From a virus (lineage: Duplodnaviria > Heunggongvirae > Uroviricota > Caudoviricetes), in the IMG/VR virus record IMGVR_UViG_2565956709_000005, positions 1-13,323 of that record: DNA of 13,323 bases. The stretch is one strand, 5' to 3'. Numbering within the stretch: the first letter of the stretch is position 1; each line of letters starts with the position of its first letter. Positions 1 to 13,323 of this stretch are shown in pieces. Both the position numbers and the translations under genes were made by a program. The notes beneath the pieces are model-generated. The model saw only the letters and a program-made list of their open reading frames with translations, was not told the origin of the DNA and did no database searches.

Positions 1-1131
1 TCAAATGACCAGTTTTTTCCATTCCTTACCGCGTGCGTCGTTGTAAATATCGGTCATTTTTTGATTCGAATGGCCTAGCAAAATTTTGGTATCAACCCCC
101 TGCTCTCTGAACAATCGCTCTGATAAAGATCTCTGCTCATGGAAAGAGGGTGGGGTGCCATTAGCACGCCAGTTGTAATCCACAGAATCCCGGGCTTTTT
201 TAAATGCAACGGTTAATGTTGCTGGCTTAACCATCCCGCCGCGCTTAGCTGTCCCTTTCGCGTGATGGTGGTGCAATAGCCACGGACTAAGAACGCAATC
301 GCGGCAGGATGACACTACATCATCCAGGGTGAGATTTAATTTATCGCAACGCAGAGCCAGAGGGATGGCAATCCGGGTTCCTGTTTTTTGCTGTTCGACA
401 TGAAGATAACCATCCCGGATATCCGAAAATTGCATTTTGCAAATATCTGAAAGGCGCTGGCCTGTCATCAGTGCCAGCAGCATACCGCGCTGTAAAAAGT
501 AACCATCCTTTTCCGCTGCGTTATAAATCATCATCCACTCATCAAAAGTCAGTCGCTGTCTTGATATCCGCACCTGCGGTTTTTTTGCCGATTCTGCAGG
601 GTTAAAGCCTGGCGGGACATCGCCCGTTTGCTGAGCTTCCCGGAAAACATCGATCAGTACTTTCCTGAAAATTTGTCCCATTCTGTTATGTCCTCTGGCC
701 TTGTACTCTTCCAGTACTGATACCACATCTTTTACGGTTATGGCATCTAACGGTCTGGTGCCAAAACGTTCATCAAATACCCTGAGAGGGGCCGCTTTCT
801 GTTTCAGCGTGTTGAGTTTGATCTCGCCGTTTTCATATCTTTCCTGTTGAATTTTTCTGTAATTATTCAGAAAAATGGTAACGGTTGATGAACCGCCGGT
901 ATCACTAATAATTTTCTCCTGCAGACTGAGCATTTGTTCCATTTGCTGCCGGGCAAGACGGCTGTTCGCTTCTGCTGCAATAGTTTCTGCCAGTTTCTGG
1001 TCAATACTGCCGAGACCGTGATTTTTGCCTGTTATGGGATGCCTGTAACGCCAGTAAACTTTGTTATTTCTTTTGTCAAAATACGGAGATAATCCCGGAA
1101 CATCGGTTTTATATTTTCGCGGGCGCGCCAT
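1..1131 (-). CDS. int: Phage tyrosine integrase (lambda Int-like site-specific recombinase), 376 aa, complete; stop codon at positions 1-3
   Basis: Full-length ORF in track. C-terminus ...LLGHSNQKMTDIYNDARGKEWKKLVI resembles the lambda Int catalytic tail (LLGH...Y motif) as I recall it. Overlaps an excisionase-like gene by 23 nt. Family assignment from established knowledge, not a search. Confidence 0.88.
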   Translation of the reverse strand: MARPRKYKTDVPGLSPYFDKRNNKVYWRYRHPITGKNHGLGSIDQKLAETIAAEANSRLARQQMEQMLSLQEKIISDTGGSSTVTIFLNNYRKIQQERYENGEIKLNTLKQKAAPLRVFDERFGTRPLDAITVKDVVSVLEEYKARGHNRMGQIFRKVLIDVFREAQQTGDVPPGFNPAESAKKPQVRISRQRLTFDEWMMIYNAAEKDGYFLQRGMLLALMTGQRLSDICKMQFSDIRDGYLHVEQQKTGTRIAIPLALRCDKLNLTLDDVVSSCRDCVLSPWLLHHHHAKGTAKRGGMVKPATLTVAFKKARDSVDYNWRANGTPPSFHEQRSLSERLFREQGVDTKILLGHSNQKMTDIYNDARGKEWKKLVI

Positions 1132-1357
1132 CTTCCAGTATCCTCTTCAAAGCAGGGTGATCTGTGGCGATCACCTCCGGCTTGTTTACCATTCCGACAA
1201 AGCGAGCTTGCGGATCCACTCGCCAGCGTCTCCCAACTTTTTTGGGGAGAGGAAATATCATTCCGGCTTTAGCGTATTTACTTAACGTACTCGGAGTAGG
1301 GACCGGTTCACTGAATTCCTCTTTTGCCCACTCAGTGAGCAGAATAAGTCTTGCCAT
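1109..1357 (-). CDS. xis: Excisionase / small DNA-binding directionality factor (Xis-like), 82 aa
   Basis: Small basic ORF immediately upstream of and overlapping int on the same strand; motif ...IFPLPKKVGRRWRV... resembles the winged-helix Xis region. Synteny plus motif; not search-verified. Confidence 0.7.
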   Translation of the reverse strand: MARLILLTEWAKEEFSEPVPTPSTLSKYAKAGMIFPLPKKVGRRWRVDPQARFVGMVNKPEVIATDHPALKRILEDGAPAKI

Positions 1358-1421
1358 GAGCGTCGTTCGCTAATCATGGTCGCCGCCACTATAGCTGGTG
1401 GGCAACGACCGGGGTTGAACA

Positions 1422-3893
1422 TTAAAAATCAGCCTGATTCGGGATCAGTTTTTGCCAGATAACTGAAACGTATTTTGCCTGGTAACGGGCGTCATCAAGT
1501 GCATTATGGCGCTCACCTTCGAATGGAATAGCCGTTCTGGCATCGAAGTCTATGGCTTTCCCCAGCTCAACGATTGTGCGTACATCGCGATCGTTGTAGT
1601 AACGCCATGGGCAGGGGATCCCCTGCCGTTCGTATGAACGGCGCAAAATCGTGTTGTCGAAGTTGGCTCCATTTCCCCAGACCTGAACAAAAAATTCGCC
1701 GGAGTTTTCGTCGATAAATTCCCGCAATTGCAGCAGTGCATCATCTAACGGGATTTCATCGGTCAGAATGGCAGATTGCGCCTCCCGTGATTGCTTAAGC
1801 CACCATTTAATGGTGCCACGATCAATGACTCCGCCAGCAGTATCCATATCGATGGTCTTACTAAATTCCGGCCCCATATCTCCGGTTTGCGGATCGAAAA
1901 ATATTGCACCTATTGAGATAAGCGGGGCATCGGGATTTTTTCCCATGGTTTCAAGGTTGATCATCATGTGGTGCCACATTCTGCTGGTGGATGTGATAAC
2001 GTGATGACCGTTCATCGCAATTAAGGGATCTGCCGTCTCGCCAGTTTCACTATCGCTGGCGTGATCCTGAGCGCTACCAGCATTCTCCTTGTGTGGATGT
2101 TCAGCGCCTTCCATTTCCTTCGGATCATTTTCCTGAACTTCAACCTGATTCTCTTCATCGAATGTTTCCTGGTATGTTGCGTCGCCCATTACCGCGCCAC
2201 AATCAGGGCAGTTGCCACCACCGCTTTGACCGCAGGCGGTGCAGACTTTTTCCGGTTCCTGTTGCGCTACTGGCTCAGGTTGTTTCGTTTCTGGCTCGTT
2301 TTGTAACGCATTTGGGCTGTTTTGTTCCGCTTTCTGGCCGTTCTGTTCCGTTTCTTGTTGGTTCTGATTCACTGAATCGCGGGTTTCAATCCCCTTCACC
2401 CATTTCGGATCATTCGGGTCGCTAATCCCTGCAACAAATTCACCACGTGATACAGCAAGCAACTTATTGGCGTCAGGCTGGCTGATATTGGCTGCCTGCA
2501 TAATTTTGTTTACTTCGTCAGCGGTAACTTTTACCGGCTCTGGTTGTGCGATCGTGTCAGATGCACCAGTATTTTGTTGTGAACCTGAGTATGTACTGTT
2601 TTTGCGGGCGAAATATTCTTCTTTCGTGATTTCAGTAGCCCCGGCAGCCAGCGCCTTATCCAGACCAGAAAGTTTGTTTGCGCGACCGTATTTTTCGCCA
2701 TCCTTGTCGGTGAAGAGGAAGTAGAACGGCCCTTCACGCTCTACAGATGGTTCGACTTCCACTTTGCATTCGGTTTTTTCGTTGTCCGGAATTGCCGTTT
2801 CCACTGCATCAGTTTCTGGTACTGGCGACGAGAGAGTATCAGTTGCGCTCTGATTTCTTCCTTCATCTTCAAACACGCCCTTTGTAGTCAGGTATTCAGT
2901 AATGTATTTGTTCAGTGCCACAGGGTCTTTGTGAATGTCGATCGGACGTTCACGGACAAGGCCAAAAATAGTCTGGCGGTCGTAGCGAAGGGCATCAGGC
3001 TGTTTGCGCATTGATGCCGAGATACGCTTCCAGTCTTCGCGGTCGTTGTCGATAACTTCATTTTTTGCCCAGCGATGGATGCTGCCGTCAATGTTTCCGG
3101 CATCCACATCACCAGGCCAGAGAGCGTAGGCCAGTTCGTCATCCAGTGTTTTCCATGTCTGCTTGTATTCGCGATGAATGGCAGCAATGACCGGGCTGAT
3201 TTTTCCTGTTGAATTTTCAGTGTGCTGTTGATTGGTTCTGGCGCGGGCGAGATCAACAACAGACGTGTATTTTCCGGTTTCCTTGCGTTCACCTTCGCGA
3301 CGTTTTTTCCAGATGCGCATCTCTGCCTGAATTTCGGGCCATTTGGCACCAGGCTTACATTTATGCTTAACCCACCCGATGGCATGCAGCTTAAGCTCCG
3401 GATACATGGCGTTAACTTCTGGCATTTTCATCAACGCTTCAACGATATGTCCGTCGAATGTTGCCATGTCTTCCTGCAACAATTCCTGTGCGCTAATAAC
3501 CATATCAACGGTGATGTTTTCACATGTGTCGAACTTAACCATGACAGCGTTCTGTACTTCAGGGGACAGCTTGTCAAAATTGACGTTCATCGGATCGGAT
3601 TCTGGTTCGACCGGAATAAAGGAAGCGGATTCCTCATCCCAGCGGTTTTCCTGCATATATTCAGCATCCCAGGAATCGAGGGCAGGGCGGGGTATACCGG
3701 GTTTATCCTCGCAGACAAGAAATTTATAAGCGCAGTCCTGAGCAGCCGGATAATGTTCCAGGAATTGCCAGTGAAATTTTGCGCGGGCGCGACGTTCATC
3801 ACCGGCTTCAATGGCAGTGGCTACAGCGACGGCACCTTCTTCCTTTATTGCCTGTTCGTCCGGAATGGCGGCGCAAATAAAGACTTTACTCAT
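1422..3893 (-). CDS. Large multidomain exonuclease, RecE / exodeoxyribonuclease VIII-like by position, 823 aa, with C-terminal DnaQ-like (DEDDh-type) 3'-5' exonuclease domain
   Basis: Long ORF with ATG at 3893 and a GAGG about 12 nt upstream. C-terminal ~180 aa carries DnaQ-family-like motifs (...VWGNGANFDNTIL... and ...HNALDDARYQ...). Middle has a Q/E/P-rich low-complexity linker and a CxxC-x9-CxxC zinc-ribbon-like motif (CTACGQSGGGNCPDCG). Segment LLAVSRGEFVAGISDPNDPKWVKG matches my unverified recollection of E. coli RecE. Sits where lambdoid phages carry exo/recE, directly upstream of xis-int. Confidence 0.6.
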   Translation of the reverse strand: MSKVFICAAIPDEQAIKEEGAVAVATAIEAGDERRARAKFHWQFLEHYPAAQDCAYKFLVCEDKPGIPRPALDSWDAEYMQENRWDEESASFIPVEPESDPMNVNFDKLSPEVQNAVMVKFDTCENITVDMVISAQELLQEDMATFDGHIVEALMKMPEVNAMYPELKLHAIGWVKHKCKPGAKWPEIQAEMRIWKKRREGERKETGKYTSVVDLARARTNQQHTENSTGKISPVIAAIHREYKQTWKTLDDELAYALWPGDVDAGNIDGSIHRWAKNEVIDNDREDWKRISASMRKQPDALRYDRQTIFGLVRERPIDIHKDPVALNKYITEYLTTKGVFEDEGRNQSATDTLSSPVPETDAVETAIPDNEKTECKVEVEPSVEREGPFYFLFTDKDGEKYGRANKLSGLDKALAAGATEITKEEYFARKNSTYSGSQQNTGASDTIAQPEPVKVTADEVNKIMQAANISQPDANKLLAVSRGEFVAGISDPNDPKWVKGIETRDSVNQNQQETEQNGQKAEQNSPNALQNEPETKQPEPVAQQEPEKVCTACGQSGGGNCPDCGAVMGDATYQETFDEENQVEVQENDPKEMEGAEHPHKENAGSAQDHASDSETGETADPLIAMNGHHVITSTSRMWHHMMINLETMGKNPDAPLISIGAIFFDPQTGDMGPEFSKTIDMDTAGGVIDRGTIKWWLKQSREAQSAILTDEIPLDDALLQLREFIDENSGEFFVQVWGNGANFDNTILRRSYERQGIPCPWRYYNDRDVRTIVELGKAIDFDARTAIPFEGERHNALDDARYQAKYVSVIWQKLIPNQADF

Positions 3894-3988
3894 TTTGTTT
3901 TAACCTCATTACAGATTTCAGGGTGAACGAATCCCTGCCATTGCTGGCATTTTTAATCCGTTGGTATGGCGTTAATATGGCTGGCGGG

Positions 3989-4177
3989 TTATCCAGCCGG
4001 TATTTCGTTATTCAGGTTCAGCGATACTTTTTTTAACGGGAGGCATTCACCGGGGATTTTTTGTTCGTCCCTTACCTGAATGCAGGATGACTTACTGTCA
4101 TAAATTCCGGTAATCACATTTTGTGGCTCACCCGTTATAAGAAAAACGGTCATCACCAGTGCAAATGCTGAAGTCAC
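3989..4177 (-). CDS. Small protein with N-terminal hydrophobic segment (predicted single transmembrane helix or signal anchor), 62 aa, unknown function
   Basis: ORF in track. N-terminus MTSAFALVMTVFLITG is hydrophobic. Start overlaps the stop of the upstream ORF in an ATGA arrangement (4174-4177). Lies in a visibly AT-rich segment. Confidence 0.5.
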   Translation of the reverse strand: MTSAFALVMTVFLITGEPQNVITGIYDSKSSCIQVRDEQKIPGECLPLKKVSLNLNNEIPAG

Positions 4178-4362
4178 TGCTGTTCTCCGATAATACCAAG
4201 TTCAAGAAGGGCAATTCTGGAAAGTATGGAATTATCATTGAGAAGATAAGGTTCATATTTTCTCATCTTAATGGCATCTTCCGTAAACTCCCGGTTACTG
4301 AGCAGAACACCAATATCAAAACAACCTTCAGACGTATTAACGTTTGGTAATAACGTTTCCAT
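4174..4362 (-). CDS. Small hypothetical protein, 62 aa from ATG 4362 (ORF track gives a 97-aa version from 4467)
   Basis: The internal ATG at 4362 is preceded by GAGGA with a 7-nt spacer; I saw no comparable ribosome-binding site at 4467. Translationally coupled to the downstream 62-aa membrane protein ORF. Confidence 0.45.
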   Translation of the reverse strand: METLLPNVNTSEGCFDIGVLLSNREFTEDAIKMRKYEPYLLNDNSILSRIALLELGIIGEQQ

Positions 4363-4927
4363 TATCGCGTCCTCAACAATGAATTTTGTGATGCGGTGCC
4401 TGGTGCCTCCAGGTGACGTTAACCAGTTAACAATTAACGCCGGATACAGAGAATCCACCCATAACACTGTTTTTGGTTTTAACTGTTCCGCGTGCGCTCA
4501 GCCGCATTCACCACATCACAAAATTCACTTTAAAAAGGGCGGCAGAGCAGTCACGGAGTAAAACTGATACCGCCAAACGTCACCAGAAAATTGATAACAG
4601 AGGGCGTTGCAGCGGAGTTGTCACTTAAGCGTATGGTCAACCTGACAACCCGGTGTCCTCAACGGAGGAAGGAATAACCCCGCCATACTTACCGCCGCGC
4701 CATTTCGCGGAGTGCCACAACCGGAAGCGCACGGTCGAACTAAATTTAACGACACCGTACAGAGAGACCAATTTCGCCGTGCGCTTTCGCTTTATGCCCT
4801 GACTTTTCAGGGACATATCCTTTCAGTAAACTGTCAGTGCCGGATGTTCACCCGTGTCCGGCGCACGCACTCCACCTGACCCGTGGAGAACTCCTTAATT
4901 ACCAACCTTAGCTTCGTTGGTTAGCTA

Positions 4928-5146
4928 TTAACGCGGGTATGTAACCATTCTGGCAATGCTTAATGCCGCTGCTTTTTCCAGCCTGGTGATATCCTGCTCC
5001 AGAGCGGACAGATTTTCAGCCTGCTTAGTCCTGGCTTCATTGGCCCATTTCAGATCCTGCGCTGCATTAATTTTCTGGCGCATCCACTCATAAAGTTCAT
5101 CATCGGTATAGTCTGGCGCGATGATGACGGGTTCTCGTTTCTGCAT
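4928..5146 (-). CDS. Small early-left protein, 72 aa, predicted helical; unknown function (positional analogue of kil/cIII-type small early genes)
   Basis: ORF in track; same strand and operon as neighbours. No recognisable motif. Confidence 0.5.
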   Translation of the reverse strand: MQKREPVIIAPDYTDDELYEWMRQKINAAQDLKWANEARTKQAENLSALEQDITRLEKAAALSIARMVTYPR

Positions 5147-5175
5147 ACTGATTCCTCGCGGTGCTGCTTCGCTTA

Positions 5176-5304
5176 TCAGCCGTTAGATTTTGCCGAGCTG
5201 GAAAGCGCCTGTTTAAACTCACTGAAGCTGAGAGCTTCTTCGCCTTCGGCAAGGCCTTCGAAGTATTCTTCGTAAGCCTTTTCCATGATTGTGTCGAAAT
5301 CCAT
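5176..5304 (-). CDS. Small acidic protein, 42 aa from ATG 5304 (56 aa if ATG 5346 is used); absent from the ORF track (below 60 aa)
   Basis: Hand-translated on the minus strand: MDFDTIMEKAYEEYFEGLAEGEEALSFSEFKQALSSSAKSNG. The ATG sits 2 nt after the stop of the upstream 78-aa ORF, with GGTGAG just upstream. Confidence 0.35.
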   Translation of the reverse strand: MDFDTIMEKAYEEYFEGLAEGEEALSFSEFKQALSSSAKSNG

Positions 5305-5305
5305 A

Positions 5306-5542
5306 TCACTCACCTGAGTTTCTTTCCAGCCAGCGACGGGCACCATTTTCGGTTTTAAACGTTTTGCTTTTGGTATACGTCATTGCGGTGAACGTGCCGT
5401 CCTGGTTGGGGAACACGCCACATACCAGAGATTCGCTGTTGCCAAGATCGATAGTATCCATGCTGACCTCATTTCCCCTTAACGCCGGGGGAGCGGAACA
5501 AAAACCTGCTGCATAGTTATTAAAGTTGAACCCTGCCGTCAT
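5306..5542 (-). CDS. First gene of the leftward early operon, 78 aa, unknown function
   Basis: ORF in track. GAGG lies 8 nt upstream of the ATG on the minus strand. About 95 nt downstream of the predicted P_L -10 element. Confidence 0.55.
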   Translation of the reverse strand: MTAGFNFNNYAAGFCSAPPALRGNEVSMDTIDLGNSESLVCGVFPNQDGTFTAMTYTKSKTFKTENGARRWLERNSGE

Positions 5543-5642
5543 GTTCTTACGCCTCGGGCTGGCTACTTAACCCCTGACCACTGCCTGGTAACTCGAGGTA
5601 TTGCCCTGTATTGTGTGGGACGGGATGGGTTGGTATGGGAAA

Positions 5643-5686
5643 ACTATAGGAAATGCCTAATTACTTGTCAATAGGCTATGCCTAAT
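5643..5686 (-). promoter_or_regulatory. Predicted leftward early promoter P_L with two operator sites (O_L)
   Basis: On the minus strand: -35 TTGACA (5671..5666), 17-bp spacer, -10 TATAGT (5648..5643). Two 17-bp dyad sites of the form ATTAGGC-N3-GCCTAAT at 5670-5686 and 5645-5661, centres 25 bp apart. Shares a 23-bp exact inverted repeat with the O_R region. Confidence 0.5.
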
Positions 5687-5779
5687 AATTTGGGCGCGAC
5701 CTAATAGGTGATGGTTTGTGGGAGAGGTAGTAGGAGTTAACTAACGGGAACTAGGAATTTCCCGTCGGACCATATAAGT

Positions 5780-6256
5780 TTAAGTTCCTGTCTTGGTGAT
5801 GTTCTGGCTTTTCCGTTTTGATTCTTGATTTTTCAGATAGTTAGCTACCTTCATTTCCATTGCGGCAATGTAGGCGCGAACGTCATGATCAACCCAACTA
5901 GGCTCCGTAGCATTTCCAGATAAGAGGAAAGCCACAATTGCTCTTTTTTCATCAGAGGCGGCTTGATAAAGGCTGTTTATGTCTAAAAGTTCACTTTTTG
6001 TATCTGAAGTGGATGGGGTTGGTATGGGGTATTCGTTAAGCCCCCAATGCTCTGGACCAACCACATCAGAAAAGAAACGCCATAGTTCTGGAAGTTTGTC
6101 TTTACTTATCGAACCTTTCTTAATCCAGTCATGGATTGATGGTGGTTGGACTTTGAAATGACGTGCGATTTCCGCCTTTGATTTGACGGCTCCTGATGCA
6201 ATTTTTTTGTTAATGGCCTGCTCAATCGCTCGGCCTAAGTCTTTACCACTAAGCAT
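5780..6256 (-). CDS. racR: Prophage repressor with HTH DNA-binding domain, RacR-like, 158 aa
   Basis: ORF in track, divergent from a cro/ydaS-like gene. HTH-like segment SKAEIARHFKVQPPSIHDWIKKG. Resemblance to E. coli Rac RacR (also 158 aa) is from memory, not a search. Confidence 0.75.
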   Translation of the reverse strand: MLSGKDLGRAIEQAINKKIASGAVKSKAEIARHFKVQPPSIHDWIKKGSISKDKLPELWRFFSDVVGPEHWGLNEYPIPTPSTSDTKSELLDINSLYQAASDEKRAIVAFLLSGNATEPSWVDHDVRAYIAAMEMKVANYLKNQESKRKSQNITKTGT

Positions 6257-6283
6257 TGCTTAATAGTCTCCTATGCGCATCGC

Positions 6284-6353
6284 GTTAGGCAATCCCTACT
6301 CTCGATGTATTAGGCATAGCCTATTGACAATTGCATTAGGCTAAGCCTAATAT
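6284..6353 (+). promoter_or_regulatory. Predicted rightward early promoter P_R with operator sites (O_R) between the repressor and cro-like genes
   Basis: -35 TTGACA (6324-6329), 18-bp spacer, -10 TAATAT (6348-6353). Perfect 17-bp palindrome ATTAGGCTAAGCCTAAT at 6335-6351, near-palindrome ATTAGGCATAGCCTATT at 6309-6325, and a degenerate third site at 6284-6300. Site centres are 25-26 bp apart. Confidence 0.55.
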
Positions 6354-6380
6354 TGTTGCGTGTTTTTTGGAGTTCATTCG

Positions 6381-6704
6381 ATGAAAAAAGATAACTATTC
6401 ATTCAAACGAGCTTGTGCTGTTGTCGGTGGGCAATCAGCAATGGCTAGGCTTTTAGGTGTATCTCCTCCAAGCGTAAATCAATGGATCAAAGGTGTACGT
6501 CAGTTGCCTGCTGAGAGATGTCCTGCGATTGAACGAGCAACAAAAGGTGGTGTCCTGTGTGAAGAACTTCGTCCTGATGTTGATTGGACATACTTACGAC
6601 GCTCGTCATGTTATTCGCAGAATATGTCGATGAAGCAACCAAATGACGAAAACGATCATACCCGAAGCATCAAGAGGCAAATGATTCATGAAAATCAAAC
6701 ATGA
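6381..6704 (+). CDS. ydaS: Cro-like HTH regulator, YdaS-like, 107 aa from ATG 6381
   Basis: GGAG lies 9 nt upstream of ATG 6381 (track starts at GTG 6360). HTH segment GGQSAMARLLGVSPPSVNQWIKG. Start matches my recollection of Rac YdaS (MKK.NYSFK.ACAVVGGQSAMARLLGV...), unverified. Confidence 0.7.
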   Translation: MKKDNYSFKRACAVVGGQSAMARLLGVSPPSVNQWIKGVRQLPAERCPAIERATKGGVLCEELRPDVDWTYLRRSSCYSQNMSMKQPNDENDHTRSIKRQMIHENQT

Positions 6705-7113
6705 GCACATCCGCATGGCGATGAATGCTTGGGCATACCCTGATGGTGAGAAAGTTCCTGCAGCTGAAATAGCCCGGACTTATTTCGAACTGGGGATGAC
6801 GTTCCCTGAACTGTACGACGACAGCCATCCGGAAGCCCTGGCCCGTAATACACAGAAAATTTTCCGTTGGCTGGATAAAGACACCCCTGATGCTGTTGAA
6901 AAAATTCAGGCTCTGTTACCGGCGATCGAAAAGGCAATGCCGCCTCTGCTGGTGGCCCGTATGCGCAGTCACAGCTCTGAGTATTACCGGGAGATTGTCG
7001 AACGGCGGGATCGGCTGGTGAAGGATGTCGACGATTTTGTTGCGTCAGCGGTTGTTTTGTATGACCAGATGAATCGCGGCGGCCCGGCAGGGAATGCTGT
7101 GGTGATGCACTAA
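6688..7113 (+). CDS. ydaT: YdaT-like protein (toxic partner of YdaS in Rac, kept silent by RacR), 141 aa
   Basis: ORF in track; overlaps ydaS-like stop by 17 nt; begins MKIKHEHI as I recall for YdaT. Mostly synteny-based. Confidence 0.6.
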   Translation: MKIKHEHIRMAMNAWAYPDGEKVPAAEIARTYFELGMTFPELYDDSHPEALARNTQKIFRWLDKDTPDAVEKIQALLPAIEKAMPPLLVARMRSHSSEYYREIVERRDRLVKDVDDFVASAVVLYDQMNRGGPAGNAVVMH

Positions 7114-7135
7114 AAGCACGGTGTTCGGGGGTTTT

Positions 7136-8098
7136 ATGAGCAGCAAGCTTCATGGTCTTGTCTGGGAAGGGTGCGCCTTCACCGGCATGATCTTATCCAG
7201 GGTGGCGGTTATGGCCCGTCTTGCAGACTACAGCAATGACGAGGGCGTGTCATGGCCTGCCATTGAAACTATCCGGCGTCAGATCGGTGCAAGAAGTGAA
7301 TCCACAGTGAAATCGGCTATTGCAGAACTGGCGAAAGAGGGCTGGCTGACGAAGGAAGAGCGTAAGGTCGGTGGGCGTAATGTAAGCAATATCTATCGAC
7401 TTAATGTGGAAAAACTCGAAGCAGCTGCGGCGGCGGCGCGTGAGTCATATAAACCGAAAAGAAAAATTAGCCCGGCAAAAAATGACCCGTTAACAGTTGA
7501 CCCGTCAAATATTGACCCCTCAACGGTTGACCCGTCAAATTTTGATGGATCAACTGTTGATAAAAAACTGCCGATTAGGGGGGCGATGATTGACCCCGAT
7601 CCGTCAGTATTAAAACCTGATCCGTCAGATAAAAGATCTTCTTGTCCGGACGCTTCGCAACCGGACCCGCAGACGGCTGAACAGGATTTTTTAACCCGAC
7701 ACCCTGACGCGGTTGTGTTCAGTGCGAAAAAACGCCAGTGGGGAAGTCAGGAAGATTTGGTGTGCGCACAGTGGATCTGGGGACGAATCGTGAGTCTTTA
7801 CGAGCAGGCGGCCAGCTATGATGGCGAGATCACTAGACCGAAAGAACCCAACTGGACAGCATGGGCCAATGACGTTCGCACAATGCGGATGCTGGATGGC
7901 AGAACTCACAGACAAATTTGTGAAATGTTTGGGCGTCTCCAGCGGGATTCGTTCTGGGTAAAAAACATCATGAGTCCGGCAAAACTCCGGGAAAAATGGG
8001 ATGAACTGGTTATCCGCCTGGGGCGTTCGCCTGCGCAGCGTTGCGTGAATCACATTTCTGAACCGGACACTGAAATTCCGCCGGGCTTCAGGGGGTAA
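7136..8098 (+). CDS. Phage replication initiation protein (N-terminal winged-helix HTH, O-like), 320 aa from ATG 7136, with ori iterons inside the coding sequence
   Basis: N-terminal HTH-like region (...WPAIETIRRQIGARSESTVKSAIAELAKEGWL...). Central DP(S/L)N/TVD peptide repeats are encoded by the DNA iterons. Position after the cro/cII-like genes matches lambda O. ATG 7136 is preceded by a G-rich stretch; the track's GTG 7121 is the alternative start. Confidence 0.7.
   Translation: MSSKLHGLVWEGCAFTGMILSRVAVMARLADYSNDEGVSWPAIETIRRQIGARSESTVKSAIAELAKEGWLTKEERKVGGRNVSNIYRLNVEKLEAAAAAARESYKPKRKISPAKNDPLTVDPSNIDPSTVDPSNFDGSTVDKKLPIRGAMIDPDPSVLKPDPSDKRSSCPDASQPDPQTAEQDFLTRHPDAVVFSAKKRQWGSQEDLVCAQWIWGRIVSLYEQAASYDGEITRPKEPNWTAWANDVRTMRMLDGRTHRQICEMFGRLQRDSFWVKNIMSPAKLREKWDELVIRLGRSPAQRCVNHISEPDTEIPPGFRG
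7482..7553. repeat. Candidate replication origin: five 12-bp dyad iterons (TTGACCCGTCAA-like) at 15-bp phasing
   Basis: Copies at 7482 (ATGACCCGTTAA), 7497 (TTGACCCGTCAA), 7512 (TTGACCCCTCAA), 7527 (TTGACCCGTCAA) and 7542 (TTGATGGATCAA), each TTGAC-NN-GTCAA-like. Followed by an A/T-rich stretch (7555-7570) and more TGACCCC / CCGTCAG repeats to about 7628. Confidence 0.6.
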
Positions 8099-8138
8099 GT
8101 GTTAATTTCTGGTCATGAGGTAATTTTCAGGAGGGCTT

Positions 8139-8561
8139 GTGGCAAAAGTTTTTACACAAGAAGAGCGGGAAAAAATTAAAGGGCAGGTTGTTGAACTCGT
8201 ACGCCAGAGTGGGCGCGAGACGTTACGACAACTGGAAACTAAAACTGGGGCAACAAGATATCTGATGAGCGTTCTGGCCAGAGAGCTGGTTGCCAGCGGC
8301 GATGTATACAACTCCGGCTACGGGTTATTCCCCTCTGAACAGGCGCGTAAGGACTGGCAAAACGCCCGCAAAAAACTCTCGAGGGCAAAGGTGAAGAAAC
8401 CTGCTGTGGTTGATCCGGACCTTATCTGGTCATCACCTGACGGAGAAATACGTCGCTACGACAGTCGCCTAAACATAATCTGTCGCGAGTGCCGGAAGAG
8501 TGAAGCTATGCAGCGTGTACTGGCTTTCTATCAGGGTAATTTTCAGGAGGCGGTACTGTGA
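8139..8561 (+). CDS. Hypothetical protein, 140 aa, GTG start
   Basis: AGGAGG lies 4 nt upstream of GTG 8139. The 16-nt ribosome-binding-site module GGTAATTTTCAGGAGG occurs just upstream and again at the gene's 3' end. Confidence 0.55.
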   Translation: MAKVFTQEEREKIKGQVVELVRQSGRETLRQLETKTGATRYLMSVLARELVASGDVYNSGYGLFPSEQARKDWQNARKKLSRAKVKKPAVVDPDLIWSSPDGEIRRYDSRLNIICRECRKSEAMQRVLAFYQGNFQEAVL

Positions 8562-8618
8562 GTGAAATTAGCTATCAGGCTTCAATTACCGCTGGCATTC
8601 GCATCAAAGGAGAGGAGC

Positions 8619-8975
8619 ATGGAAATAAAACCAGAGGATGAGTTAAGCAATATCGTTTTATTTCCGGTAAAAGAGGATGACCCTCGTAATCAGGTTAATT
8701 TTCTTTATGAGCCATCGGAAAGACCATATTGTCATCACGCCTCTGTCCGGGTTGACGAAAAAGAGCGTCAGGTCCGCTGTAAAATCTGCGGTGCAGTTGT
8801 GGAGCCATTTGACTGGATGCTCTCTGTGGCGAAAAGAGAAACCAGACTGGCAGATGATGTAAGGCTCTTGCGTCAAGAGGAGCGGGAAAGGCGAAAAAAT
8901 ATAGAAAAGCTAATTCAGATTGAGCGTAACGCGAAAGCGCGGATACGCAGGGCGACAAAATCCAGAACTGAATAA
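8619..8975 (+). CDS. Hypothetical zinc-ribbon-like protein, 118 aa from ATG 8619 (track version starts at GTG 8562)
   Basis: Strong ribosome-binding site AAGGAGAGGAG directly upstream of ATG 8619. Cys/His cluster YCHHASV...CKICG. Basic coiled-coil-like C-terminus. Confidence 0.55.
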   Translation: MEIKPEDELSNIVLFPVKEDDPRNQVNFLYEPSERPYCHHASVRVDEKERQVRCKICGAVVEPFDWMLSVAKRETRLADDVRLLRQEERERRKNIEKLIQIERNAKARIRRATKSRTE

Positions 8976-9068
8976 TTAAATTTAGCTCTGTTAAAAATTT
9001 AATCCTTAACCGGAGGGATTTCTGCACCCTCAGAACATCAGGAGGCCGCCCGAAAGGGCGGTAGTTAA

Positions 9069-9251
9069 ATGCGAAAGTTTAAAATAATTATTGAAACGGG
9101 AATAGCCGGTGGAGATTTCGAGGATGAATTCGAAGTGGATGATGATGCGACGCCTGATGAAATACATGACGAAGCAAAAGATATTTTCTTTAACTACTGC
9201 AATTACTCATATCACGAAATAAAAGACGAAGAGGAAGAACAAAATGGCTGA
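9069..9251 (+). CDS. Very acidic small protein, 60 aa (20 Asp/Glu against 5 Lys/Arg), unknown function
   Basis: ORF in track. AGGAGG (9040-9045), then a GC hairpin (9046-9061), then ATG 9069. Composition counted by hand. Confidence 0.5.
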   Translation: MRKFKIIIETGIAGGDFEDEFEVDDDATPDEIHDEAKDIFFNYCNYSYHEIKDEEEEQNG

Positions 9252-9420
9252 TTTTGGTTCAACTAAATACAACGTCAGTTTTGAAGAATGGCATGAACTG
9301 TTAATGGACTATGCAGAGTTACGTGGTGGCAGTGCTGCTGATGCTGAAGCATGGCGTGATGATTATGAAGCAGGAAAAACTCCGGTCGAAGCATATTGTG
9401 ATGAGTGGGGCGATGAATGA
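9244..9420 (+). CDS. Acidic small protein, 58 aa (16 Asp/Glu against 4 Lys/Arg); absent from the ORF track
   Basis: Hand-translated: MADFGSTKYNVSFEEWHELLMDYAELRGGSAADAEAWRDDYEAGKTPVEAYCDEWGDE. Start overlaps the upstream stop (ATGGCTGA) and its stop overlaps the next ATG (ATGA). Confidence 0.45.
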   Translation: MADFGSTKYNVSFEEWHELLMDYAELRGGSAADAEAWRDDYEAGKTPVEAYCDEWGDE

Positions 9421-9733
9421 GCGAGGTTAATTATCAGGAAGGGCATGAAACGGCGGGGCAAGCAAAAACAGTGGCATGGCGATATCGCTACGTGAAAAAA
9501 AAGGCGTTACGGACTTTCAGGGGAAGTAGTGGTCTGGTGACTGGAAATATGTACCGAAAAAAGAGGATTGTAACGACAGGCCGAACTATGAAATTCAGGC
9601 CTTATTCACTGCCCCGCCAGTCCCGGTTACATCAGAAGAACTGGTTAAAGCTGTGCACTTTTATGAACAACTAAAACGCGAAAATCCACCAGCATCCGGA
9701 AACCTGATTACAGATTCCCAGATAAGGCAATGA
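9417..9733 (+). pseudogene. Disrupted or recoded gene: translationally coupled start at 9417, A8 run with A_AAA_AAG heptamer, protein-like coding in the -1 frame downstream, in-frame TAG at 9527-9529
   Basis: Frame 0 from 9417 is open to 9674 but its C-terminal half is compositionally odd (K/R-rich). The -1 frame from 9530 to 9733 reads protein-like (WSGDWKYVPKKEDCNDRPNYEIQALFTAPPVPVTSEELVKAVHFYEQLKRENPP...) but has no start codon and follows a TAG. Slippery heptamer at 9497-9503. Confidence 0.3.
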
Positions 9734-9903
9734 GCTACCTGGCGCAGAACGGGCTGATAAGTATGGGGAATGTTTTACGATGAATATTTAGACTAAAGAG
9801 TTTGTAACGCTATGTAAGTGATTTTTTCTGGTTTAGATATTTATATATCCGGCCAAATTGAGGTGTGTTTAAATGTAATTGCACATTGATTGTAGGAGGA
9901 ATA

Positions 9904-10083
9904 ATGAAAAACGCATTGCAGTTTTTGTTTGTTGCGTTCTGGTTGTTCGTATCATGTATGCCCATCATCTTCACAGCAAGGTATATGGAAAAAGTTGATG
10001 TTTTGATATTAATATTTGGATATATAAATGCCCTTTTTTTAGGGGTGTTCATGGCGGTCATGTGCATTGAATACTGGCGGTAA
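9904..10083 (+). CDS. Small hydrophobic protein, 59 aa, two predicted transmembrane helices; accessory (moron-like) gene in an AT-rich island
   Basis: AGGAGG (9894-9899) with a 4-nt spacer to ATG 9904 (track lists a longer version from 9865). Sequence MKNALQFLFVAFWLFVSCMPIIFTARYMEKVDVLILIFGYINALFLGVFMAVMCIEYWR. Surrounding 9780-10080 is visibly AT-rich. Confidence 0.55.
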   Translation: MKNALQFLFVAFWLFVSCMPIIFTARYMEKVDVLILIFGYINALFLGVFMAVMCIEYWR

Positions 10084-10138
10084 ATACAGCGAACGCCATT
10101 GGTTTAGTTGGATATTTACTGTGCCGGACAAAAACGGT

Positions 10139-10166
10139 TTGCGGGGAAATCTTAGTTAAGTAGAAT
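10139..10166 (+). promoter_or_regulatory. Predicted promoter of the hok/mok mRNA
   Basis: -35 TTGCGG (10139-10144), 16-bp spacer, -10 TAGAAT (10161-10166). The predicted start near 10173 coincides with a 5' element (10171-10184) complementary to the mRNA 3' region (10547-10561). Confidence 0.45.
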
Positions 10167-10221
10167 GACTGCGGGTGCTTGAGGCTATCTGTCTCAGGCA
10201 TGAACACCAAAAGGCAGATAG

Positions 10222-10295
10222 AGAAAAGCCCCAGTTAACATTACGCGTCCTGCAAGACGCTTAACATTAATCTGAGGCCATATCTATGCTCTACA
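10222..10295 (-). ncRNA. sok: Predicted Sok-like antisense RNA covering the mok ribosome-binding site and start codon
   Basis: Inferred from hok-locus architecture. Minus-strand terminator-like structure (hairpin GCGUC...GACGC nested in a GGCCUCAG/CUGGGGCU stem, then UUUUCUCU) ends near 10222. Weak candidate promoter on the minus strand (-35 TTGCCT 10329..10324, -10 TAACCT 10306..10301). Boundaries approximate. Confidence 0.35.
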
Positions 10296-10498
10296 CACGT
10301 AGGTTAGCCTCTTACGTGCCGAAAGGCAAGGAGAAGCAGGCTATGAAGCAGCAAAAGGCGATGCTAATCGCCCTGATCGTCATCTGTTTAACCGTCATAG
10401 TGACGGCACTGGTAACGAGGAAAGACCTCTGCGAGGTACGAATCCGAACCGGCCAGACGGAGGTCGCTGTCTTCACAGCTTACGAACCTGAGGAGTAA
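10286..10498 (+). CDS. mok: Mok-like reading frame (in-frame N-terminal extension of Hok), 70 aa
   Basis: ORF in track. Starts 19 codons upstream of hok in the same frame, an arrangement I recall for MokC/HokC. GAGG lies 8 nt upstream of ATG 10286. Confidence 0.6.
   Translation: MLYTRRLASYVPKGKEKQAMKQQKAMLIALIVICLTVIVTALVTRKDLCEVRIRTGQTEVAVFTAYEPEE
10343..10498 (+). CDS. hok: Hok/Gef-family type I toxin (small membrane-depolarising peptide), 51 aa, HokD/RelF-like
   Basis: Sequence MKQQKAMLIALIVICLTVIVTALVTRKDLCEVRIRTGQTEVAVFTAYEPEE has the Hok/Gef signature (N-terminal transmembrane helix, ...LVTRKDLCEV.IRTG..EVA.F.AYE...). AAGGAG lies 10 nt upstream. Confidence 0.88.
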   Translation: MKQQKAMLIALIVICLTVIVTALVTRKDLCEVRIRTGQTEVAVFTAYEPEE

Positions 10499-10565
10499 GA
10501 GACCAGGCGGGGGAGAATCCCTCGCCACCTCTGATGTGTCAGGCATCCTCAACGCACCCGCACTT

Positions 10566-10592
10566 AACCCGCTTCGGCGGGTTTTGTTTTTT
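10566..10592 (+). terminator. Rho-independent terminator of the hok mRNA
   Basis: AACCCGC-TTCG-GCGGGTT stem-loop followed by TTTTGTTTTTT. Confidence 0.8.
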
Positions 10593-10664
10593 CCTGGCAT
10601 TCTGGTTTACAATTCGCACGTCAGCCTGAACACCTGACACCTGCTGCGCCAGCAGAGAAAACAG

Positions 10665-10937
10665 ATGGCGCACAAAACCAAATTTCACAATTCTGATACC
10701 GACCTTGCCATCCGGCATGAGCGGCGTTCACACGCATTTAAAACCGACTGGTACCAACACCCACCATGTACTGAAGAACAGGCCGAATGGCTGATTCATA
10801 ACTACCGCAGACGTGGATATGAGTTTAGGAAAGCCCTCACCCTCGATTATCGTCACTGGATAATCTACGTCAGACTCCCTTATTCCGAACGCCCACCGCG
10901 TCCGTCCCGCACATTCCAGCAACGGATCTGGAGGTAA
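10665..10937 (+). CDS. Hypothetical protein, 90 aa, translationally coupled to the downstream HNH-motif protein
   Basis: ORF in track. Its 3' end contains the GGAGG that serves the next gene's GTG start. The antisense ORF here is S/T/R/P-rich and less plausible. Confidence 0.5.
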   Translation: MAHKTKFHNSDTDLAIRHERRSHAFKTDWYQHPPCTEEQAEWLIHNYRRRGYEFRKALTLDYRHWIIYVRLPYSERPPRPSRTFQQRIWR

Positions 10938-10938
10938 C

Positions 10939-11997
10939 GTGCGGGTATTACTTCGATCTGTTCCGGTACCGGAACTTGGGCTGGTGGTCCTTAAGCCTGG
11001 TCGTGAATCCATGCAGGTATTCCGCAGCGGTCGTGTACTGGTGGAGCCGGAACCGAAAAGCATGCGCGGTCTGCCGTCCGGAGTCGTTCCTGCCGTTCGC
11101 CAGCCATTGGCGGAGGATAAATCACTACTGCCATTTTTCAGCGATGAGCGGGTGATTCGTGCTGCTGGCGGTGCTGGTGCGCTGTCTGACTGGCTGTTAC
11201 GCCACGTTAAATCCTGCCAGTGGCCTCATGGTGACTATCATCACAGTGAAATCGTCATACATCGTTACGGTACCGGCGCGATGGTGTTGTGCTGGCACTG
11301 CGACAACCAGCTGCGTGACCAGACCTCCGAATCACTCGGGCAACTTGCTCATCAAAACCTGTCAGCATGGATGATTGACGTCATACGCCATGCAGTGAAT
11401 GGCACGCAGGAGCGGGAATTATCGCTGGCTGAATTGTGCTGCTGGGCTTCTGTAAATGATGTAGTGGATGCCATGACCGAAAATATGGCGCGTCGAATCC
11501 TGAAGCTTCCGGGTGAAAAAATCCGCTCAGTATACCGCGAGAGCGACATCGTACCGGGAGAGCAGACCGCCATCAGCATACTGAAGCAGCGCACAAAAAA
11601 TATTGCGCCGTTGCCTCACGCCCACCAGCAACAGAATCCACCACAGGAAAAGACGGTGGTCAGCATTGCCGTTGATCCGGAGTCACCGGCTCAGTATCTC
11701 CAGCGCCAGAAACCACAACGGGAAGAGATGCCTGTATACACGCGCTGGGTAAAAACGCAGAAATGCATGACGTGTGGCAATCAGGCAGATGATCCGCATC
11801 ACATCATTGGTCATGGACTGGGAGGGATGGGAACAAAGGCTGATGATTTGTTTGTTATTCCGCTGTGCCGTAAATGCCATAGCGAACTACACGCCGGGGT
11901 AAAAGATTTTGAAGAAAAACACGGCAGCCAGCTGTTGTTGCTGATTCGTTTTTTAATGCACGCGAGAAATTCGGGTGTCCTGAAGTGGAAAGCATGA
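10939..11997 (+). CDS. Nin-region protein with C-terminal HNH-type zinc-finger nuclease motif (DUF968-like), 352 aa
   Basis: C-terminus CMTCGNQADDPHHIIGHGLGGMG...LCRKCHSELH has a CxxC...HH...CxxCH...H layout. GGAGG lies 6 nt upstream of GTG 10939. Sits directly upstream of rusA. DUF968 label is from memory. Confidence 0.65.
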   Translation: MRVLLRSVPVPELGLVVLKPGRESMQVFRSGRVLVEPEPKSMRGLPSGVVPAVRQPLAEDKSLLPFFSDERVIRAAGGAGALSDWLLRHVKSCQWPHGDYHHSEIVIHRYGTGAMVLCWHCDNQLRDQTSESLGQLAHQNLSAWMIDVIRHAVNGTQERELSLAELCCWASVNDVVDAMTENMARRILKLPGEKIRSVYRESDIVPGEQTAISILKQRTKNIAPLPHAHQQQNPPQEKTVVSIAVDPESPAQYLQRQKPQREEMPVYTRWVKTQKCMTCGNQADDPHHIIGHGLGGMGTKADDLFVIPLCRKCHSELHAGVKDFEEKHGSQLLLLIRFLMHARNSGVLKWKA

Positions 11998-12363
11998 ATG
12001 ACTGAACGCATAGAATTTGTTTTGCCTTACCCGCCAACGGTGAACACTTACTGGCGACGTCGTGGCAGCACATATTTTGTATCAAAAGCCGGTGAGCGTT
12101 ATCGCCGTGATGTGGCGCTTATTGTTCGCCAGCAGCGGCTGAAATTAAACCTGTCCGGAAGGCTGGCGATAAAGATTATTGCAGAGCCACCGGATAAACG
12201 TCGTCGTGACCTGGACAATATCCTGAAAGCACCACTGGATGCGCTGACGCATGCCGGACTTCTCATAGACGACGAGCAGTTTGATGAAATCAATATTGTG
12301 CGCGGTCAGCGCGTTCCTGGGGGGCGGCTGGGCGTGAAGATTTACAAAATTGAGAGTGAGTGA
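11998..12363 (+). CDS. rusA: RusA Holliday-junction resolvase, 121 aa
   Basis: Motifs ...LPYPPTVNTYWRR... and ...PDKRRRDLDNILKAPLDAL... match the RusA family as I know it. Start overlaps the upstream stop (TGAATG). Confidence 0.88.
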   Translation: MTERIEFVLPYPPTVNTYWRRRGSTYFVSKAGERYRRDVALIVRQQRLKLNLSGRLAIKIIAEPPDKRRRDLDNILKAPLDALTHAGLLIDDEQFDEINIVRGQRVPGGRLGVKIYKIESE

Positions 12364-12917
12364 TCGTAAATATGATATATCCGGAAATTACAGGCAAAAG
12401 CGGCGAGCATTTACGTCTAAAAACGCTGGAAGCCGTCTGGATCCAGGGGAAATTACGGATGTGGGGGCGTTGGTCGTACATAGGTGGTGGCAAACCAGGA
12501 AATATGTTCAATCAGTTGCTGGCATCCAAAACACTTACAAAAACTGCGATCAATGAAGCTCTGCGCAGAATAAAAAAATCAGGGATTGATAAAACTGAGC
12601 TGGAAGCGTTTTTGCGTGAGATGATCAACAGCAAGCAAAAGAGCGGGCTGGCTTATTGTACTGATGCCGAGGCGTTATGTATCGATCGGGTAATTAGTAA
12701 AGTGTTGGCAGAGCATCCGGGATTGATTTGTATCCTCCGACAAAGATATGAAGGGCTGGGAATGAGCAAGCTGAAAATGGCAGAACAGTTAAAAAAGAAT
12801 CACCCTGACTGGAGCCTGAAAACTTGTAGAAATCGCATTGATGTTTGGTTGGCGATGGCTGAAACCATGCTTTTCCTTCCAATGTGCGTGGCACTTCGGT
12901 GCTTTTCTGATAACTGA
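12360..12917 (+). CDS. Putative late-gene antiterminator (Q-like) by position, 185 aa; start may be ATG 12372 rather than GTG 12360
   Basis: ORF in track. Follows rusA as Q does in lambdoid phages and is followed by a promoter-like sequence. No Q-specific motif recognised, so the function is positional inference. Confidence 0.4.
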   Translation: MIVNMIYPEITGKSGEHLRLKTLEAVWIQGKLRMWGRWSYIGGGKPGNMFNQLLASKTLTKTAINEALRRIKKSGIDKTELEAFLREMINSKQKSGLAYCTDAEALCIDRVISKVLAEHPGLICILRQRYEGLGMSKLKMAEQLKKNHPDWSLKTCRNRIDVWLAMAETMLFLPMCVALRCFSDN

Positions 12918-12992
12918 TGATAGAAGTGCATCAGCTATCAATCTTGTTGACGTTCATCAAGGTCTGGACAATACTTACGTTAAGTTCCAACA

Positions 12993-13323
12993 GGTAATGG
13001 TGCCAACTTACTGATTTAGTGTATGATGGTGTTTTTGAGGTGCTCCCGTGGCTTCCATCTCCATCAGTTGTCCCTCCTGCTCAGCTACTGAAGGCGTGGT
13101 GCGTAACGGTAAAAGTACTGCCGGACATCAGCGCTATCTCTGCTCTCACTGCCGTAAAACATGGCAACTGCAGTTCACTTACACCGCTTCTCAACCCGGT
13201 ACACACCAGAAAATCATTGATATGGCCATGAATGGTGTTGGATGCCGGGCAACCGCCCGCATTATGGGCGTTGGCCTCAACACGATTTTACGTCACTTAA
13301 AAAACTCAGGCCGCAGTCGGTAA
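12993..13323 (+). mobile_element. IS1 insertion sequence, left end and insA, truncated by the window edge
   Basis: Terminal sequence GGTAATGGTGCCAACTTACTGAT at 12993 resembles the IS1 inverted repeat as recalled, followed by a complete insA ORF and the IS1 A6C frameshift motif (13299-13305). Confidence 0.88.
13048..13323 (+). CDS. insA: IS1 InsA (transposition regulator; N-terminal part of the InsAB' frameshift transposase), 91 aa
   Basis: Sequence [43 protein letters not shown]... is recognisable as IS1 InsA. Slippery A AAA AAC lies near the 3' end. Confidence 0.9.

Follow-up and report, generated by a model that had tools for sequence, protein, structure and literature searches.

The early region of a lambdoid prophage of Escherichia coli, whose integration site adjoins ompW, carries a three-gene locus that is very likely an immunity switch, in which RacR is the CI-like repressor, YdaS the Cro-like and YdaT the CII-like protein, with ydaS and ydaT acting as regulatory genes and not as a toxin pair. 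The stretch of DNA analyzed (the window; 13,323 nucleotides, positions 1 to 13,323 of IMG/VR record IMGVR_UViG_2565956709_000005) comprises this early region. A first-pass annotation of the same DNA had likened the locus to that of the K-12 Rac prophage and had read ydaS and ydaT as toxic genes silenced by the repressor, an arrangement that would stabilize the prophage by addiction.

The locus is already known: its components are annotated, common, and experimentally characterized in close homologs. The gene identities, operators, promoters, YdaT-box, mosaic junctions, and prevalence reported here come directly from analysis of the window and of bacterial genomes, and DNA binding, activation of the reverse promoter, the non-toxicity of this type of YdaT, and control of the left arm by RacR are taken from published experiments on homologs that are 85–95% identical. 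We infer that these activities hold in the present hybrid, and likewise which genes would kill on derepression.

General Features of the Immunity Region

The closest genome is that of strain EC24, which differs from window bases 1–12992 by five substitutions and one indel over 12,992 nt, and which carries lysis and morphogenesis genes downstream. Strain ST648 matches the 1.5-kb immunity region (5700–7200) at 100%, differs elsewhere, and contains an additional IS3. The open reading frame (ORF) boundaries in the window coincide with the RefSeq CDS boundaries in the identical DNA of ST648 and EC24, where the labels are "racR" (WP_000948454.1), "helix-turn-helix domain-containing protein" (WP_000711018.1), and "toxin YdaT family protein" (WP_000693906.1). 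Features are listed in Table 1.

The gene order of Rac, as described in the first-pass annotation, is present, with racR divergent from two rightward genes whose products begin MKKDNYSF and MKIKHEHI; the third gene is a different allele. Alignment with the Rac proteins, which that annotation had proposed as a check, bears out the homology for RacR, for YdaS, and for the operator and promoter region. It fails for ydaT, at 31% identity to the K-12 protein, the kind of low identity that the annotation had itself named as telling against its reading. An antisense ORF of 152 amino acids (6695–7153) was set aside as spurious, since its whole length falls within or opposite a gene for a protein of solved structure. 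A search of 5400–7400 against Rfam at a permissive threshold gave no match, and no known RNA element is therefore part of the ydaS/ydaT finding.

Table 1. Features of the immunity region and flanking operons (window coordinates)
Feature	Position	Strand	Basis or remark
Left operon, Qin dicBF type	3989–5461	-	Rfam, Pfam, K-12 Qin identity
ydfD-like gene	3989–4177	-	Part of left operon
dicB	4174–4362	-	Pfam DicB, 3.7e-38
DicF sRNA	4537–4588	-	Rfam DicF, 76.7 bits
ydfC	4928–5146	-	Part of left operon
ydfB	5176–5304	-	Part of left operon
ydfA-like gene	5306–5461	-	Part of left operon
O_L/P_L	5643–5703	-	TTGACA-17-TATAGT (5671 to 5643), 11/12 consensus positions
RacR operator at P_L	5647–5659		Operator scan, 1 mismatch
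RacR operator at P_L	5672–5684		Operator scan, perfect
RacR operator at P_L	5691–5703		Operator scan, 2 mismatches
racR, CI-analogue repressor, 158 aa	5780–6256	-	NCBIfam RacR equivalog, K-12 identity
O_R/P_R region	6250–6353		Operator and promoter scans; 94% K-12 identity of intergenic region
RacR operator	6250–6262		2 mismatches; over racR ATG
RacR operator	6286–6298		1 mismatch
RacR operator	6311–6323		Perfect
RacR operator	6337–6349		Perfect
P_R, rightward	-35 TTGACA 6324–6329; -10 TAATAT 6348–6353	+	Promoter scan; spacer 18
ydaS-like gene, Cro analogue, 107 aa	6381–6704	+	Pfam YdaS_toxin, P22_Cro; PHROG 35
PracR4 counterpart (P_RE analogue), inside ydaS	6471–6503	-	K-12 alignment, 97% identical over 91 nt
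YdaT-box ATGATTCATGAAAATCAA, inverted repeat, ydaT ATG in spacer	6681–6698	+	Pattern match; identity with K-12 footprint
ydaT-like gene, CII analogue of CP-933P type, 141 aa	6688–7113	+	PDB 8BT1, 3C4R; PHROG 163
O-like replication initiator, next after ydaT	7121–8098 (RefSeq start 7136)	+	PHROG 391, 2.2e-115; Pfam HTH_36
DUF977/Ren-like gene	8139–8561	+	Pfam DUF977, 2.7e-28; PHROG 142 Ren-like exclusion protein, 7.1e-48

RacR and the Early Promoters

The 158-codon ORF divergent from the ydaS operon encodes a RacR ortholog that passes the NCBIfam RacR equivalog cutoff of 200 with 246.8 bits and is 92% identical to K-12 RacR, which forms octamers (PMC11014345); the protein is annotated as WP_000948454.1 in both ST648 and O157:H7 strain 86-24. 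The 124-bp region between racR and ydaS is 94% identical to its K-12 counterpart. The K-12 operator, (T/A)TAGGC-n3-GCCTA(T/A), the RacR footprints, and the mapped hexamers of the PydaST promoter are known from earlier work (PMC9638921). Scanning with TAGGC-n3-GCCTA at up to two mismatches returned nine sites in the window against 3.6 expected, and seven of the nine cluster beside racR. Those between racR and ydaS overlap PydaS (TTGACA/TAATAT), whose hexamers are those of the mapped K-12 promoter, and the start of racR. The P_R/O_R predicted in the first-pass annotation directly upstream of ydaS is found where it was placed, as TTGACA-18-TAATAT with RacR operators between the two genes.

A second promoter on the other side of racR is bracketed by three further operators. 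A 23-nt perfect inverted repeat joins 5665–5687 to the P_R operator and -35 hexamer at 6308–6330, so that racR is flanked by P_L and P_R promoter/operator units in mirror-image arrangement. The repressor gene thus sits between two operator-covered promoters. The same operator pair lies downstream of racR in K-12 Rac, and depletion of RacR in K-12 raises the left-arm xis/int transcripts about 100-fold (PMC11014345).

YdaS and the Reverse Promoter

The first gene of the rightward operon encodes a helix-turn-helix YdaS of the Rac type, 85% identical to the K-12 protein. It matches Pfam YdaS_toxin (PF15943; 103.9 bits, cutoff 30, 3.8e-30) and also, above threshold, P22_Cro (1e-08); among solved structures the closest are those of Cro proteins (e.g., 3BD1, 2.8e-10), and the product falls in PHROG 35, a transcriptional repressor family. 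The TGA stop codon of K-12 ydaS is CGA here, which adds 13 C-terminal residues and makes the gene overlap both ydaT, by 17 nt, and the YdaT-box. The analogy with Cro is incomplete, since one study saw no repression of racR by K-12 YdaS (PMC9638921).

Within ydaS lies a predicted reverse promoter corresponding to PracR4 of K-12, whose hexamers have been named (PMC11879457). Its -10 hexamer (TACGCT, 6476–6471) is identical to that of K-12, and its -35 (6503–6498) reads CTGACG where K-12 has TTGACG. The promoter is predicted to be active here; the substituted -35 base, like the C-terminal extension of YdaS, counts against the proposed switch.

The YdaT Allele and Its Binding Site

The second gene of the rightward operon is not an ortholog of the rcsA-activating, killing YdaT of Rac. 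Its product matches Pfam YdaT_toxin (42.6 bits, cutoff 21), a match at the family level only, and it is 95% identical (133 of 140 positions; E = 1.2e-88) to PDB 8BT1, with a further match to PDB 3C4R (9e-80). The 8BT1 structure is that of YdaT from CP-933P, a cryptic prophage of O157:H7; this YdaT is described as functionally equivalent to lambda CII (PMC9986795), forms a tetramer with a POU-type helix-turn-helix and recognizes 5'-TTGATT-n6-AATCAA-3' at the ydaS/ydaT junction (PMC9986795). The product is assigned to PHROG 163, CII-like transcriptional activators (2.2e-47). Isolated temperate Escherichia phages carry copies at 82–84% identity, several of them labeled "activator protein cII," and in most of these phages the gene adjoins a cro- or dicC-type regulator gene. 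Residues R60 and W61 of the recognition helix align with R57 and W58, the arginine and tryptophan of the Rac YdaT recognition helix (PMC11879457).

The corresponding binding site is also present. At no more than one mismatch, TTGATT-n6-AATCAA has a single match in the window, the YdaT-box ATGATTCATGAAAATCAA over the ydaT start, where 0.09 would be expected; elsewhere in the window there are only chance-level matches at three mismatches (six found, ten expected). All 18 letters of the box are the same as in the YdaT-box of K-12 Rac defined by DNase I footprinting (PMC11879457), and it is one base off the OM site of CP-933P (PMC9986795); it is conserved in three immunity types. In K-12, YdaT bound to the box activates PracR4 up to 29-fold and raises racR expression (PMC11879457), and the Rac and CP-933P forms of YdaT activate a box-dependent reverse promoter equally in vivo (PMC11879457, Fig 3C). 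The window thus has both the box and, in ydaS, the predicted reverse promoter.

Flanking Operons

To the left, P_L heads an operon of the type found in the Qin prophage, containing ydfA, ydfB, ydfC, the DicF small RNA, dicB, and ydfD homologs and also matching Pfam DUF1482 and DUF1391; exonuclease, xis, and int genes follow the ydfD-like gene. Window positions 5499–4251 are 94.7% identical to the dicBF operon of K-12 Qin, and a terminator scan found no minus-strand terminator-like site between P_L and dicB. When this operon is derepressed in Qin, DicF and DicB make the cells filament; YdfD is a lysis protein (PMC10448788). Both racR and the Qin repressor gene dicA are among the genes listed as essential in Keio (PMC5992433).

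To the right, the P_R operon runs from the Cro-like to the CII-like gene and on into replication genes. An O-like and a Ren-like gene follow ydaT, and the order is therefore that of lambda, cI-cro-cII-O-ren.

A Probable Model of the Switch

Genetic context and experiments have identified YdaS and YdaT as analogues of Cro and CII (PMC5917428, PMC8630535, PMC9986795, PMC11879457). We regard the following as the most likely way in which the locus works. RacR would bind the TAGGC-n3-GCCTA operators over the mirror-image promoters P_R (PydaS) and P_L, keeping both early operons silent. YdaS would compete at the same operators, counter repression, and favor induction and excision. YdaT would bind the YdaT-box across its own start codon and activate the reverse promoter in ydaS, the P_RE analogue, from which antisense transcription through ydaS toward racR would lead to more racR transcription. 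Bistable regulation and CII-dependent activation of the repressor have been demonstrated for the K-12 Rac and CP-933P homologs (PMC11879457, PMC8630535), and by analogy both would operate here.

Loss of RacR would derepress the whole prophage, with harm coming mainly from DicF, DicB, YdfD, and the replication and late genes. Such loss would probably still be harmful to the cell. If it is lethal, the left dicBF operon together with general induction is a likelier cause than ydaS and ydaT.

Comparison with Known Systems

The locus shares with K-12 Rac its repressor, its YdaS, and its intergenic region, including the PydaS hexamers, RacR operators, O_L operator pair, and YdaT-box sequence, and departs from it in the ydaT allele and in the overlap of ydaS with ydaT that follows the lost stop codon. 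The arms also differ: Rac has ydaF-sieB-kilR on the left and ydaU and ydaV on the right, whereas the present prophage, integrated at ompW, has the Qin-type set ydfABC-DicF-dicB-ydfD and the O-like and DUF977 genes. CP-933P of O157:H7 (Sp12; paaR2-paaA2-parE2, ydaS, ydaT) is alike in its YdaT and in the binding site at the ydaS/ydaT junction, one base away from TTGATT-n6-AATCAA. It has the repressor PaaR2 and an embedded ParE2 toxin-antitoxin system, where the present locus has a repressor and a Cro analogue of Rac type, and the YdaS of CP-933P shares only 26% identity with that of Rac (PMC8630535).

The lambda cI-cro-cII region has the same divergent promoters of the P_RM/P_R type, multiple operators, a second set at P_L, the same gene order, and a CII-type activator whose target promoter runs antisense to cro (PMC11879457). 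Unlike the lambda site, that of YdaT is an inverted and not a direct repeat (PMC9986795), and RacR lacks the LexA-type cleavage domain, RacR-type repressors being reported not to respond to SOS (PMC10448788). The resemblance to Qin (dicA-dicC/dicBF) covers the body of the left operon (ydfA, ydfB, ydfC, DicF, and the start of dicB) and its position downstream of a P_L-type promoter kept off by the prophage repressor (PMC10448788). It does not extend to the repressor and operators, which are of the RacR and not the DicA type, and DicB and YdfD are 61% and 46% identical to the K-12 proteins.

Toxin and Other Interpretations

The reading closest to that of the first-pass annotation is that ydaS and ydaT are toxins silenced by RacR, that loss of the repressor is lethal through them, and that the trio is an addiction module stabilizing the prophage. 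RacR, YdaS, and the operator region are indeed closely conserved here, and in K-12 racR is essential, a racR deletion having been recovered only together with deletion of ydaS-ydaT (PMC5700373). Overexpression of YdaS or of YdaS-T was lethal in the same study, and both proteins have been called toxins (PMC5700377); a 2026 preprint, with the two 2017 studies, likewise has overexpressed K-12 YdaS killing cells and racR deletable only in the absence of ydaS-ydaT (bioRxiv 10.64898/2026.09.06.749655; PMC5700373; PMC5700377). Against this, ydaT in the window is the CP-933P type, for which Jurenas et al. detected no toxic effect on expression (PMC8630535). Wons et al. traced the toxicity of YdaT to direct activation of the host gene rcsA, which the CP-933P homolog cannot activate (PMC11879457, Fig 7C). 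Since the window has the CP-933P-type allele, it lacks the Rac component whose toxicity is best documented. The label of a toxin pair is disputed, outdated, and not applicable to this allele. Gucwa et al. found that YdaT and not YdaS lowers viability, and that YdaS induces Rac excision (PMC11014345); Jobling considered the two genes Cro and CII analogues by genetic context, their ectopic expression merely harmful (PMC5917428). Viable temperate phages, moreover, have homologs of which several bear the annotation cII. Because the 2017 and 2023 results conflict, YdaS may still contribute toxicity here.

The logic of addiction does not hold up either. The repressor and the genes that it represses are on one element, so that loss of the element removes both. 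The whole Rac prophage can be deleted from viable cells (PMC5700373), and Rac excision, triggered by RacR depletion, rescues the cells (PMC11014345; bioRxiv 10.64898/2026.09.06.749655). Such an arrangement therefore selects for keeping racR as long as the rest of the prophage is present, and not for keeping the prophage. It guards racR against inactivation, as would be true of any repressor of a prophage. Toxin-based addiction at this locus is unlikely, and we would give the reading as a whole roughly one chance in eight.

That the genes are inert remnants without function in a decaying prophage is more improbable again. In the genome from which the window comes, the Q-like gene is followed at about 12993 by an IS1 element, a neighboring ORF is frameshifted in relatives, and the SOS-insensitivity reported for RacR-type repressors (PMC10448788) fits such decay. 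Yet the racR, ydaS-like, and ydaT-like ORFs are all intact, the operators, promoters, and YdaT-box are preserved, unrelated strains share identical proteins at different integration sites, and the ydaS/ydaT junction recurs in 532 genomes, at 96–100% identity among the matches sampled.

A classical type II toxin-antitoxin pair, which is suggested only by the Pfam names YdaS_toxin and YdaT_toxin and by the original RASTA-Bacteria prediction as cited in PMC5917428 and PMC9986795, can be rejected with near certainty: the experiments of Christensen-Dalsgaard 2010, as cited in the same two papers, gave no toxin-antitoxin support, close homologs showed no toxin-antitoxin behavior (PMC8630535; PMC5700373), K-12 YdaS co-induced with YdaT neither added to nor relieved the YdaT effect, which was unchanged (PMC11014345), and both proteins are DNA-binding helix-turn-helix regulators (structure matches; PMC9986795).

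Mosaic Structure and Prevalence

The probable lambda-type switch of RacR, YdaS, and YdaT is itself a hybrid. Homology to K-12 DNA ends at about position 6711, just within ydaT. In strain EC931 the same ydaT allele (93% nucleotide identity) follows an unrelated LexA-family repressor and a 71-amino-acid Cro, and the K-12 ydaT allele is likewise found after other cro-type genes. Each time, homology is lost at the YdaT-box and the start of ydaT, where a segment of about 30 bp is common to all immunity types compared; ydaT therefore behaves as a module of the cII position. O157:H7 strain 86-24 has identical RacR and YdaS proteins with this type of ydaT at a different site, potC, and with different replication genes, and WP_000948454.1 and WP_000711018.1 recur unchanged in unrelated strains with different integration sites. 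Among 5426 complete E. coli genomes, 532 have the junction of Rac-type ydaS with CP-933P-type ydaT; the K-12 junction occurs in 558. Being that common and already annotated, the locus is an ordinary one.

As a tentative suggestion, for which we would not claim even odds, this widespread hybrid may amount to a natural experiment: a CII analogue without toxicity would stand in for the YdaT of K-12 Rac, which activates rcsA and is toxic to the host, and the segment of about 30 bp at the YdaT-box and ydaT start would serve as a portable recombination joint that preserves P_RE-type activation after modules are exchanged. If the toxic YdaT has been replaced in this way, essentiality of the repressor would vanish or would move entirely to the DicF/DicB operon under P_L.

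Implications

The main value of the analysis is corrective. Names such as "toxin YdaS" and "toxin YdaT" in databases suggest a toxin or an addiction system, whereas the locus is in all likelihood a standard lambdoid switch of the cI/cro/cII type. The type of YdaT allele found here has been crystallized (as the 95% identical CP-933P protein) and published as a harmless transcription activator. At least two alleles, about 30% identical to each other and differing in their effects on the host, go under the name ydaT. Results obtained with K-12 Rac are not transferable to strains that carry the hybrid junction, which make up roughly 10% of the complete E. coli genomes. If RacR proves essential in strains with this junction, O157:H7 among them, the DicF/DicB operon and prophage induction are the first places to look for the cause.

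The Apparent cro/cII Joint

Relative to its K-12 counterpart, the Cro-analogue gene ydaS carries, toward its 3' end, a 12-nt deletion and a change of the stop codon from TGA to CGA, and the product is therefore extended by 13 residues (RSIKRQMIHENQT). The extension is encoded through the YdaT-box, the inverted repeat at the start of the CII-analogue gene ydaT, and the ydaS and ydaT reading frames have 17 nt in common. An identical 107-amino-acid YdaS (WP_000711018.1) is present in Escherichia coli strains ST648, EC24, and O157:H7 86-24. A segment of about 30 bp, comprising the YdaT-box and the first codons of ydaT, is common to immunity regions of the Rac, CP-933P, and LexA types, whose remaining sequences show no relationship on at least one side of it. 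This segment appears to be the joint at which the cro and cII modules recombine.

Features of the prophage early region (window coordinates)
Feature	Coordinates	Evidence or remark
"Exonuclease" gene	1422-3893	823 amino acids
ydfABC-DicF-dicB-ydfD operon	3989-5461	Qin type
DicF	4537-4588	
Inverted repeat, P_L arm	5665-5687	23 nt, perfect
Inverted repeat, P_R arm	6308-6330	23 nt, perfect
Altered ydaS 3' end	6652-6704	
Segment common to immunity types	6680-6711	
ORF annotated as broken in relatives	9417-9674	
hok/sok locus	10173-10498	
sok	10173-10348	Rfam, 117.1 bits
hokD	10343-10498	Annotated hokD in EC24 and ST648
IS1 end	12993-13323	
insA ORF	13048 onward	

Promoters, Repressor, and Left Operon

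P_L and P_R contain a perfect inverted repeat that includes the operator and the -35 hexamer TTGACA, and are thus mirror images of each other, 620 nt apart around racR; such a layout would lend itself to looping through the RacR octamer that has been reported. The RacR-type P_L/O_L heads a division-inhibitor operon of the Qin type. The body of this operon is 94.7% identical to that of K-12 Qin, although DicB and YdfD are only 61% and 46% identical, respectively, to their K-12 counterparts. Operon and repressor type were brought together by recombination. EC24, the closest genome, has T in place of G at window position 5820 (about 20820 in the EC24 locus), and its racR is annotated as encoding 145 rather than 158 amino acids. 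The EC24 repressor is a natural C-terminal truncation, in a prophage otherwise nearly identical to that of the window.

Other Genes and Insertion Elements

An "exonuclease" gene occupies the recombination-gene position. In its product Pfam recognises just one domain, an Rv2179c-like 3'-5' exoribonuclease domain at the C terminus (residues 642-813); the long N-terminal portion matches no family. Two small DUF7167-region genes are followed by an ORF annotated in relatives as frameshifted or containing an internal stop; ST648 has an IS3-family insertion just 3' of the corresponding ORF, whereas the window has none (interval in the compared locus L001, 10997-12225).

The IS1 end with its insA ORF directly follows the Q-like gene (DUF1133/antiterminator Q). 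EC24 lacks IS1 at this point and has instead genes for an AAA ATPase, a methyltransferase, lysis, and the head, as well as tRNAs. In the window copy, the late region may have been disrupted or displaced.

The prophage that carries ydaS/ydaT also contains a hok/sok type I toxin-antitoxin locus, which, unlike the ydaS/ydaT pair, is a recognised module of the plasmid-addiction type.
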